64,000 nt of DNA from Methanobacteriota archaeon (lineage in GTDB: Archaea; Thermoplasmatota; E2; DHVEG-1). How positions within the stretch are numbered: the stretch's first letter is position 1; each line of letters starts with the position of its first letter. The notes under the pieces are model-generated. The model was not told the origin of the DNA and did not search any database. It saw nothing but the letters and a program-made list of their open reading frames with translations. Made by a program: the position numbers and the translations under genes. The stretch lies in the NCBI GenBank assembly GCA_963769885.1, contig CAVYNH010000006.1, positions 512,001-576,000 on the forward strand, in the 5' to 3' direction. This document shows positions 3,048 to 5,622 of the stretch, in pieces.

Positions 3048-3743
3048 TTAGTCGGTGCTTGACACCTGCTGATCCAGGGTCATAATCCCCTGACGGCTGG
3101 CCACAATCACAAGGTCCGCGAGATTAATGAACAGCCCATTCTCAACCACTCCGGGAATCGCGTTAATGTCTTTTTCCAGGACTTCAGGCTGAGCAATCCG
3201 ACCGAAGTCACAATCGATGATATAGTTGCCATTATCCGTGATGAACTTCTCATCAACGATTGTGCGCAGCTCCGCCGTACATCCCAGGTCAACCAGGGAT
3301 TTTTTCGTCGCCGCCCAGCCAAACTTCGTCACTTCGACAGGCACGGGAAAATCAGCCCCGAGGCCTTTGACAATCTTGGTCTCATCCACGGCGATGATTT
3401 CCTTTTTCGTATGGTACGCCACGATCTTCTCGCGGGTCAGTGCGCCGCCACCGCCTTTAATGAGGTTCAAATGGGAGTCCACCTCGTCAGCGCCATCGAT
3501 GGTGACGTCGATTTCTATAGTCTCGTCAAGCTCGATGATGGGGATGGCGAATTCACTGGCGAGTTTCTTGGATTTCATGGAGGTCGGGACAGCCTGTATC
3601 CGGAAGCCGTCTTTGACCATGGCGCCAAGCTTGCGAACGGCGAACTCAGCGGTTGAACCGGTCCCCAGACCTACAATCATTCCATCTTCGACGAACTGCA
3701 CCGCGCGCTCCGCGGCCAGTTTCTTCATTTCCGGTTGTTCCAC
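3048..3743 (-). CDS. rpiA: Ribose-5-phosphate isomerase A
   Basis: GLGTGST, DGADEVD, IKGGGGALTREK, TDNGN motifs. Confidence 0.97.
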   Translation of the reverse strand: MEQPEMKKLAAERAVQFVEDGMIVGLGTGSTAEFAVRKLGAMVKDGFRIQAVPTSMKSKKLASEFAIPIIELDETIEIDVTIDGADEVDSHLNLIKGGGGALTREKIVAYHTKKEIIAVDETKIVKGLGADFPVPVEVTKFGWAATKKSLVDLGCTAELRTIVDEKFITDNGNYIIDCDFGRIAQPEVLEKDINAIPGVVENGLFINLADLVIVASRQGIMTLDQQVSSTD

Positions 3744-3817
3744 GCTGTCACCACTCTTGTAACCGGCGTCGTATACAAAAACTTATACTTTGGAGTGGCA
3801 TTTCCCACCGTGACATT

Positions 3818-4522
3818 ATGCTAGGCAACTGTGATGACCACGGGTACTTCCGAGGCGAAGTCTGCCCAATCTGTAACCACAAGGGCCGTTTCCTGATGAG
3901 CGACCGTGAGCTCGACTCGCTGGGTCGAATCATGGCCGGCGTCTTGCGGCATTTCCCGGAGAAATTGGGAGTCGTGGTCGACGGTCATGGCTGGGTCGAT
4001 ATTTCGAAGTTCGTGGAGGCAGTCGGCGGGAGCCGCTCGGGGTTCCATTGGTTGAAGACCACGCACGTCGAGGCCATCGCATTGACGGACCCGAAGGGGC
4101 GGTACCAGGTTGACGGTGGGATGATTCGGGCGACGTATGGGCATACCATCGATGTGAAGCTGGATGACCTGCCGCTGGCGGACAATGAGTTCTTCTATTA
4201 CCCGGTGACCGAGGAGGAGATCGATTTGATCCTTGAGGGTGGGTTGAGGCCGATTGACCGTCGTCAGGTGCATCTCAGCGGGAGCATCGGGAAGGCGTTG
4301 GAGGCGGGTCGTGTGCGTACGGAGGATCCGTTGATTCTTCGGATTGATGGGAAGAAGGCCAAGGAGGACGGATTGCTCATTTATCGTGCCGGGTTCGATG
4401 TGTATGTGACGGACCGGGTTGACGCGAAGTACATCTCTAAAGTTGATCCCTCCGAGTATACGGAATCTGGGGAAAAGAGCGATGAAACCGGCGAGGAACC
4501 CAGTGAGGAAAAAAGCGAATAG
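3818..4522 (+). CDS. kptA: RNA 2'-phosphotransferase (KptA/Tpt1) with N-terminal Zn-binding motif
   Basis: LRH, KGRY, IRATYGHT, RRQVHLS motifs; N-terminal CxxH...CxxC; true start ATG 3818. Confidence 0.92.
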   Translation: MLGNCDDHGYFRGEVCPICNHKGRFLMSDRELDSLGRIMAGVLRHFPEKLGVVVDGHGWVDISKFVEAVGGSRSGFHWLKTTHVEAIALTDPKGRYQVDGGMIRATYGHTIDVKLDDLPLADNEFFYYPVTEEEIDLILEGGLRPIDRRQVHLSGSIGKALEAGRVRTEDPLILRIDGKKAKEDGLLIYRAGFDVYVTDRVDAKYISKVDPSEYTESGEKSDETGEEPSEEKSE

Positions 4523-5363: not shown

Positions 5364-5462
5364 ATGAAACGCAGCTCACGGGTATGGAAGAAACGGCGGA
5401 AAATGCGCTGGAAGTGGCGCAAGAAACGGATGCGCCGCGAGAAGCGCATGCGCAAACAGTGA
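5364..5462 (+). CDS. rpl41e: Ribosomal protein eL41 (eS32); missed by the ORF track
   Basis: MKRSSRVWKKRRKMRWKWRKKRMRREKRMRKQ contains the eL41 MRxKWRKKRMRR signature; GAGGA SD. Confidence 0.92.
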   Translation: MKRSSRVWKKRRKMRWKWRKKRMRREKRMRKQ

Positions 5463-5483: not shown

Positions 5484-5622
5484 GGGAGCATGGTGTAACC
5501 CGGCATCATTACGGGCTCCAGTTAGGTATGATTACAAGAGGGTCATCTGACGGATGATGAGTAACTGGAGCGATGACCTACGAAGAGACCCGTCGATCTG
5601 GGTTCAAATCCCAGTGCTCCCA
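5484..5622 (+). tRNA. tRNA-Trp(CCA) with a 66-nt intron at 37/38 (5522-5587)
   Basis: Acceptor GGGAGCA/TGCTCCC, anticodon stem ACGGG/CCCGT, anticodon CCA 5518-5520, T-arm GGTTCAAATCC; relaxed bulge-helix-bulge junction. Confidence 0.95.
5522..5587 (+). ncRNA. Intron-encoded box C/D guide RNA
   Basis: C ATGATTA 5528-34, D' CTGA 5547-50, C' ATGATGA 5554-60, D ATGA 5573-76; D guide TAACTGGAGC is complementary to 5515-5524 and N+5 falls on C34. Confidence 0.9.

Follow-up and report, generated by a model that had tools for sequence, protein, structure and literature searches.

The stretch analyzed here, a window of 64,000 nucleotides (nt) from a Methanobacteriota archaeon (contig CAVYNH010000006.1), carries a tRNA-Trp(CCA) gene whose intron has the layout of a box C/D small RNA (sRNA). 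One of its two guides is directed at the tRNA itself, and the other is predicted to act on helix 69 (H69) of 23S rRNA. Boxes C, D', C' and D, listed as complete in the original prediction, follow one another in that order within 5528-5576, with spacers of about 12 nt and a terminal stem, as in a box C/D sRNA (Table 1). The first letter of box D, itself a deviation, is complementary to the one deviating letter of box C. The Rfam model sR3 (RF01133) matches 5524-5578 with 27.3 bits (E 2e-4), below its gathering score of 41.

Table 1. Features of the tRNA-Trp locus (window coordinates; guide positions in brackets are counted back from box D' or D).
Feature	Position	Strand	Basis
tRNA-Trp(CCA), whole gene including intron	5484..5622	+	Rfam tRNA, 43.5 bits
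tRNA-Trp(CCA) 5' exon; C34 = 5518, G37 = 5521	5484..5521	+	Rfam tRNA alignment; positions
Intron of 66 nt, inserted at the canonical site (37/38); box C/D sRNA of sR3/sR50 type	5522..5587	+	sequence, relatives
Terminal stem, 5' arm (partner 5577-5580)	5523..5526	+	sequence
Box C, AUGAUUA, one deviation, kept in relatives	5528..5534	+	sequence, relatives
D' spacer, 12 nt; 5536-5545, predicted 10-bp guide to 23S 1917-1926, G5542 (-5) to C1920	5535..5546	+	pairing
Part of D' spacer also complementary to own tRNA around C39	5540..5544	+	pairing
Box D', CUGA	5547..5550	+	sequence
Box C', AUGAUGA	5554..5560	+	sequence
D spacer, 12 nt; 5562-5571 pairs with pre-tRNA 5515-5524, G5568 (-5) to C34	5561..5572	+	pairing
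Box D, AUGA	5573..5576	+	sequence
Terminal stem, 3' arm	5577..5580	+	sequence
tRNA-Trp 3' exon; C39 = 5589	5588..5622	+	Rfam tRNA alignment; positions
Arg/Lys-rich open reading frame (ORF) of 32 aa, L41e-like; marker of locus synteny	5364..5462	+	no Pfam or NCBIfam match

The D guide reads its own transcript. As had been claimed, it forms 10 Watson-Crick base pairs (bp) across the exon-intron junction, with C34 selected by the N+5 rule, and the duplex has an energy of -17.6 kcal/mol. The intron therefore shares with the tRNA-Trp intron guides both the 37/38 site of tRNA-Trp(CCA) and a D guide to its own C34. It lacks the extended D' duplex on position 39: the register is intact, and the D' guide (5536-5546) forms 5 Watson-Crick pairs around C39 of its own pre- or mature tRNA, plus G-U contacts, where most outgroups have 7-9 of 10. 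The earlier count of five pairs was thus accurate. Judged from its sequence, the intron is a variant of the euryarchaeal tRNA-Trp intron guide, homologous by descent.

The D' guide has a better partner in the 23S rRNA. The genome to which the window belongs (G000, an assembly 92% complete) contains one 23S gene (C5:179601-182799, minus strand), and the exact 11-nt complement of the guide lies in it at C5:180831-180821. By numbering verified against E. coli MG1655 rrlH, these are positions 1916-1926 in H69, and G5542 stands opposite C1920 (C5:180827), the N+5 nucleotide. The original prediction had made this match, and the choice of C1920, from a general archaeal H69 sequence; that sequence holds across the duplex and departs from the genome just outside it, at position 1915, which is C here and not U. 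That position (C5:180832), normally U or pseudouridine, is C throughout families f1 and f10, and 1916 is C in family f4. When all rRNAs and tRNAs of the genome were scanned for the complement of the guide, H69 ranked first, with a Watson-Crick run of 11 against 7 for the runner-up, and the duplex energy was -17.9 kcal/mol on H69 versus -10.7 kcal/mol on the tRNA's own C39. Archaeal target prediction has used a criterion of 9 bp (PMC4644070); counting consecutive Watson-Crick pairs that cover -5, with at least 9 required, the D guide has 10 on C34 and the D' guide 11 on C1920. A run of at least 11 over position 5 in the rRNA of this genome was reached by 33 of 20,000 shuffled guides, by 32 of 20,000 when the inherited GGGUC core was held fixed, and by 78 of 20,000 when the seven box-proximal letters were. 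One more exact 11-mer match, within mRNA-like sequence at C7:222648, was discarded as a target, being at chance level for a 2-Mb genome.

The box-proximal pair of this match, at -1, is probably not functional. Archaeal ribonucleoproteins (RNPs) use guide pairings of at most 10 nt (PMC7229835), and in family f4 the 23S has C1916, yet guide position -1 remains U. For both reasons we take the working duplex to be -2 to -11 on 1917-1926, or 10 bp.

We then compared 69 distinct introns from the window's class with an outgroup of 54 introns from other groups of the same phylum. The introns were collected without use of the guide, apart from two family f35 rows of the tally that came from a guide search; other phyla were covered through published guide tables. 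The phylum is Thermoplasmatota, as two of its genomes carry their introns at coordinates published for Thermoplasma acidophilum and T. volcanium; the window's class differs from that of Thermoplasma and is probably GTDB E2 (DHVEG-1 / MBG-D). Pairing with H69 exceeded pairing with the own tRNA in all 69 class introns, 47 of which matched H69 at 10 of 10 positions and 11 at 9 of 10. Guide positions -10 and -11 were conserved in 68 and 66 of the 69, respectively; position -12, outside the duplex, varied freely. In the outgroup, own-tRNA pairing won in 50 of 54, with 7-9 of 10 pairs, and guide letters -2 and -3 tracked the intron's last letters. Where tRNA position 41 had changed (G286, G642 and G643), the guide stayed with H69. 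In G124, whose guide equals that published for Picrophilus torridus, the 23S has C1926 and the guide a matching G at -11. Among cultured species, intron guides fit H69 in Picrophilus torridus (10 bp) and in Thermoplasma acidophilum and T. volcanium (8+2 bp); the intron guide of Ferroplasma does not fit it, and in Aciduliprofundum the guide is free-standing. In the table published in 2008, the guides of Thermoplasma and Picrophilus are entered as guides to position 39, H69 unmentioned, and the H69 sequence is absent from those of Methanosarcina, Methanomicrobiales, Pyrococcus/Thermococcales and Archaeoglobus (PMC2584109 suppl. 4).

The original prediction called the guide "retargeted". The fit to C1920 bears this out, but in some lineages the guide may be dual, as its five-letter core still pairs around C39. 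A dual guide would direct methylation of C1920 and, through a shared core of 5-6 bp, some methylation of C39 on its own pre-tRNA, which would modify the C1920 reading. The core at -3 to -6 is invariant in 69 of 69 introns and suits both targets; several lineages with the H69 guide have U as the intron's penultimate base, regaining a pair at -2, and in family f35 this U occurs in exactly the three genomes with a full H69 guide. G373 even tracks its own tRNA at -7. The own-tRNA duplex in the window, with 5 Watson-Crick pairs and -10.7 kcal/mol, falls below the 9-bp criterion (PMC4644070) and also short of the 7-9 pairs of the outgroups, and for the window's organism we regard dual action as possible, though rather unlikely.

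G000 encodes the splicing endonuclease along with fibrillarin, Nop5 and L7Ae, and TlyA gave no match above cut-off there. In bacteria, TlyA makes 2'-O-methylated C1920 (Cm1920) of 23S and Cm1409 of 16S rRNA (Johansen 2006, as cited in PMC5389701). H69 is a methylation hotspot (PMC4644070), and Cm1920 guided by a C/D RNA has been reported in Nanoarchaeum equitans by mass spectrometry and RiboMeth-seq, as data not shown in that paper (PMC5389701). Guide-target and C/D sRNA scans of the 92% complete genome found no other guide for C1920, including any separate sRNA of the kind that the original prediction had named as a competing source. The only other C/D sRNA with perfect boxes found in the genome lies at C6:225805-225871. 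Its D guide pairs 10 bp with C34 of tRNA-Leu(CAA) and its D' guide 9 bp with the variable arm of tRNA-Leu(UAA); its D-guide pattern is present in 99 of 129 class genomes.

The 23S gene of G000 also carries a group I intron of 268 nt after U1931 (C5:180815-180548, minus strand; L001:2512-2725; RF00028, 77 bits); a typical homing endonuclease gene would not fit into it. L1931 is among the known intron sites of archaea (PMC6125680), and four other class genomes have inserts of 270-717 nt there. The P1 partner of this intron overlaps 1925-1926, so the guide could bind H69 mainly as a folding chaperone or as a competitor of P1, without methylating. That would leave unexplained why the guides hold strictly to the N+5 register and the 12-nt spacer, and Cm1920 is a measured archaeal modification (PMC5389701). 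Inserts at 1931 occur in just 5 of 31 loci, and because most guide-bearing relatives lack the intron, we consider it incidental and such a chaperone or competitor role highly improbable.

The same guide occurs outside introns. In the sister class, the pattern of box C, guide and box D' was found in 78 of 301 genomes (reversed control, 3). All 40 sister-class loci that were read encode a free-standing sRNA with the D guide of sR49/sR-tMet, for C34 of pre-tRNA-Met. A dedicated, predicted C1920 guide of identical sequence is conserved in the phylum. In this sister-class homolog (L379-L406, L439-L455), the D' slot given over to C1920 is one that varies in other euryarchaeotes. In the window's class, the pattern matched 111 of 197 genomes, and none of the 20 matches inspected was of sR49 type; besides the intron type, we found no C1920 guide in the class. 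The window RNA itself stands apart from sR49/sR-tMet, being intronic, with a D guide to tRNA-Trp and only the D' guide in common. No convincing sR49-type copy, with a C34 guide for tRNA-Met, was found in G000, whose elongator tRNA-Met (C4:138424-138546) has an intron. A site at C6:741762 (minus strand), possibly a degenerate tRNA-Met guide, has neither proper boxes nor an H69 guide and was rejected. Several families are nearly devoid of the C1920 guide pattern (among them f11, 1 of 48; f27, 0 of 54). Because many relatives lack the pattern, the Cm1920 mark is probably dispensable.

Family f35 contains both arrangements. In G109, G179 and G391, the H69 guide sits in a free sRNA, and the introns, with 8-9 of 10 pairs, mismatch H69 at -8. 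In G201, G762 and G778, the intron guide matches H69 at 10 of 10, and in the free sRNA at the syntenic locus the tRNA-Met guide is intact but the D' guide is register-shifted (G201) or decayed. The shifted guide of G201 (L515) is one base off and would select C1921 instead of C1920. This is the pattern that would be expected of a hand-over between sRNA and intron, and it shows that a single substitution would be enough to finish it. As routes, point mutation and gene conversion fit the pattern equally well, and the direction too is one that we infer.

In genus g44 of the window's class, the tRNA-Trp genes found are mostly intron-less, and in two metagenome-assembled genomes (MAGs) the RNA appears to have outlived the intron. 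In G635 (L542), a C/D-like RNA lies about 12 nt behind an intron-less tRNA-Trp, its H69 guide intact and its C34 guide decayed. G396 (L541; 85% complete) has an intron-like C/D RNA at the old locus, 80 nt behind the L41e-like ORF that also precedes tRNA-Trp in the window. Here too the guide to H69 is intact and the one to C34 decayed; the intron-less tRNA-Trp of G396 is about 2.8 kb away. In five further g44 genomes, a search confined to within 1.5 kb of tRNA-Trp found no such RNA. The RNAs of G396 and G635 may record the birth of a free sRNA gene out of a tRNA intron.

Class-wide conservation, a free-standing twin, reciprocal decay and survival after intron loss all agree with the core of the original prediction, a D guide for the tRNA's own C34 and a D' guide acting in trans on C1920. 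In the window's organism, the RNP of the excised intron very probably directs methylation of C34 on other pre-tRNAs and of C1920 on pre-23S rRNA before H69 is locked into the subunit. In the mechanism that we infer from the boxes, pairings, numbering, machinery genes and distribution in relatives, the intron RNA would assemble with L7Ae, Nop5 and fibrillarin, and the D guide would direct methylation of C34 in the unspliced pre-tRNA-Trp. The D' guide would act probably as part of the excised, circularized intron, opening H69 of the pre-23S, forming 10 bp with 1917-1926 and directing 2'-O-methylation of C1920. For the Haloferax tRNA-Trp intron, action in trans and a stable circle have been reported (PMC7994747, PMC3326292). 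The link between tRNA splicing and ribosome maturation that the original prediction drew from such trans action is a hypothesis.

Several observations weigh against this reading. One to three mismatches to H69, mostly at -9, occur in 22 of the 69 class guides; in G278, outside the parsed 69, H69 and the own tRNA tie at 8 to 8, and the guide of G373 followed its own tRNA at the position mentioned above. Positions 1917-1926 of the 23S are invariant within the class, among them 1918, whose covariation with guide position 5544 the original prediction had put forward; this leaves no within-class covariation, and the sole compensatory case, G124, belongs to another class. Kin genomes are not independent, and the counts reflect a few events. 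At 92% completeness, G000 could have a second C1920 guide missing from its assembly, and one of the two survival cases, G635, comes from a MAG that is 65% complete. Sequencing-run contigs of relatives are unspliced, with neither a splice nor a circle joint; they are possibly DNA, and as such evidence in neither direction. Finally, guide letters -1 to -6 or -7 can fold back on box D and the terminal stem of the same intron, and the resulting hairpin is the minimum free energy fold of the naked intron (-14.1 kcal/mol, z -2.0).

This hairpin raises the alternative that the D' guide is no more than a C39 guide that has weakened, or a structural element, and matches H69 by coincidence. Across lineages, guide -1 and the opening letter of box D covary, and, as noted, -1 does not follow C1916 of family f4. 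Self-pairing with box D may account for -1 and perhaps -2, but for none of -8 to -11, and was rejected as an account of the whole guide: the latter letters are self-paired in 0-18% versus 70-100% for H69. With the seven proximal letters fixed, a full match arose in 0.4% of trials. Nor would coincidence account for a free-standing guide of identical sequence, for the reciprocal decay or for the retention of the RNA after intron loss, and we judge this alternative improbable.

A broader reading joins these observations across the class. The tRNA-Trp intron would be the sole 23S Cm1920 guide of the whole class, the C1920 job would have come to it from an sR49-type sRNA more than once, and would matter enough for the intron RNA to persist as a gene of its own after intron loss. 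The hand-overs would involve the window's class, part of f35 and scattered Thermoplasmatales such as Picrophilus, and would be eased by the five letters common to H69 and the tRNA 37-41 region. We consider this joint reading more likely than not. If true, it would make traceable how a tRNA intron turns into an independent C/D sRNA gene.

The tRNA-Trp intron is a textbook self-targeting guide. The target predicted here lies at intersubunit bridge B2a, on the ribose marked by TlyA in bacteria. A tRNA intron with a job beyond its own tRNA would bear on the persistence of archaeal tRNA introns, and the relatives offer candidate stages in the evolution of a guide: intermediates one mismatch short, a hand-over in which the donor decays, and an intron RNA escaping to a free gene. 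The literature searched, which did not extend to several primary papers, reports no rRNA as a target of the tRNA-Trp intron; this would be the first.

The surroundings of the gene add two observations. The L41e-like ORF stops 21 nt upstream of tRNA-Trp, and co-transcription is plausible. An RNA 2'-phosphotransferase gene (Tpt1/KptA, PF01885) at 3653-4522 lies just upstream of a tRNA-Lys gene, about 1 kb from tRNA-Trp. In the G000 assembly, 16S stands right at the terminus of C6, and 23S, 5S and tRNA-Ala lie close to that of C5, so that operon linkage is not readable.

Among known systems, the closest is the euryarchaeal tRNA-Trp intron C/D RNA (Haloferax volcanii; Pyrococcus sR50; Rfam sR3, RF01133; Clouet d'Orval 2001 and Singh 2004, as cited in PMC7994747 and PMC2584109). 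It has the same host gene, 37/38 site, four boxes and 12-nt spacers, and the same D guide to C34 over the exon-intron junction, whereas the D' guide of the window fits 23S C1920 (10-11 bp) and not position 39 (5 bp). Neq sR20 of N. equitans (PMC5389701) is likewise a box C/D guide for Cm1920 in H69, but is not a tRNA intron, and its other guide is directed at 16S G1530. In the sR49/sR-tMet family (PMC2584109 suppl. 5), the sister-class member has the identical guide for C1920 at D'; elsewhere in the family the D' guide is variable, with no H69 sequence in halophiles, Methanosarcina or Thermococcales. Bacterial TlyA is directed at the same 23S ribose, but is a protein-only enzyme. The composite and transposed C/D sRNAs of Pyrobaculum (PMC6009581) resemble the present case in that one guide is common to two sRNA families. 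They are free-standing genes in single species, whereas here a tRNA intron is the proposed recipient, the arrangement extends through a class and the donor copy decays.
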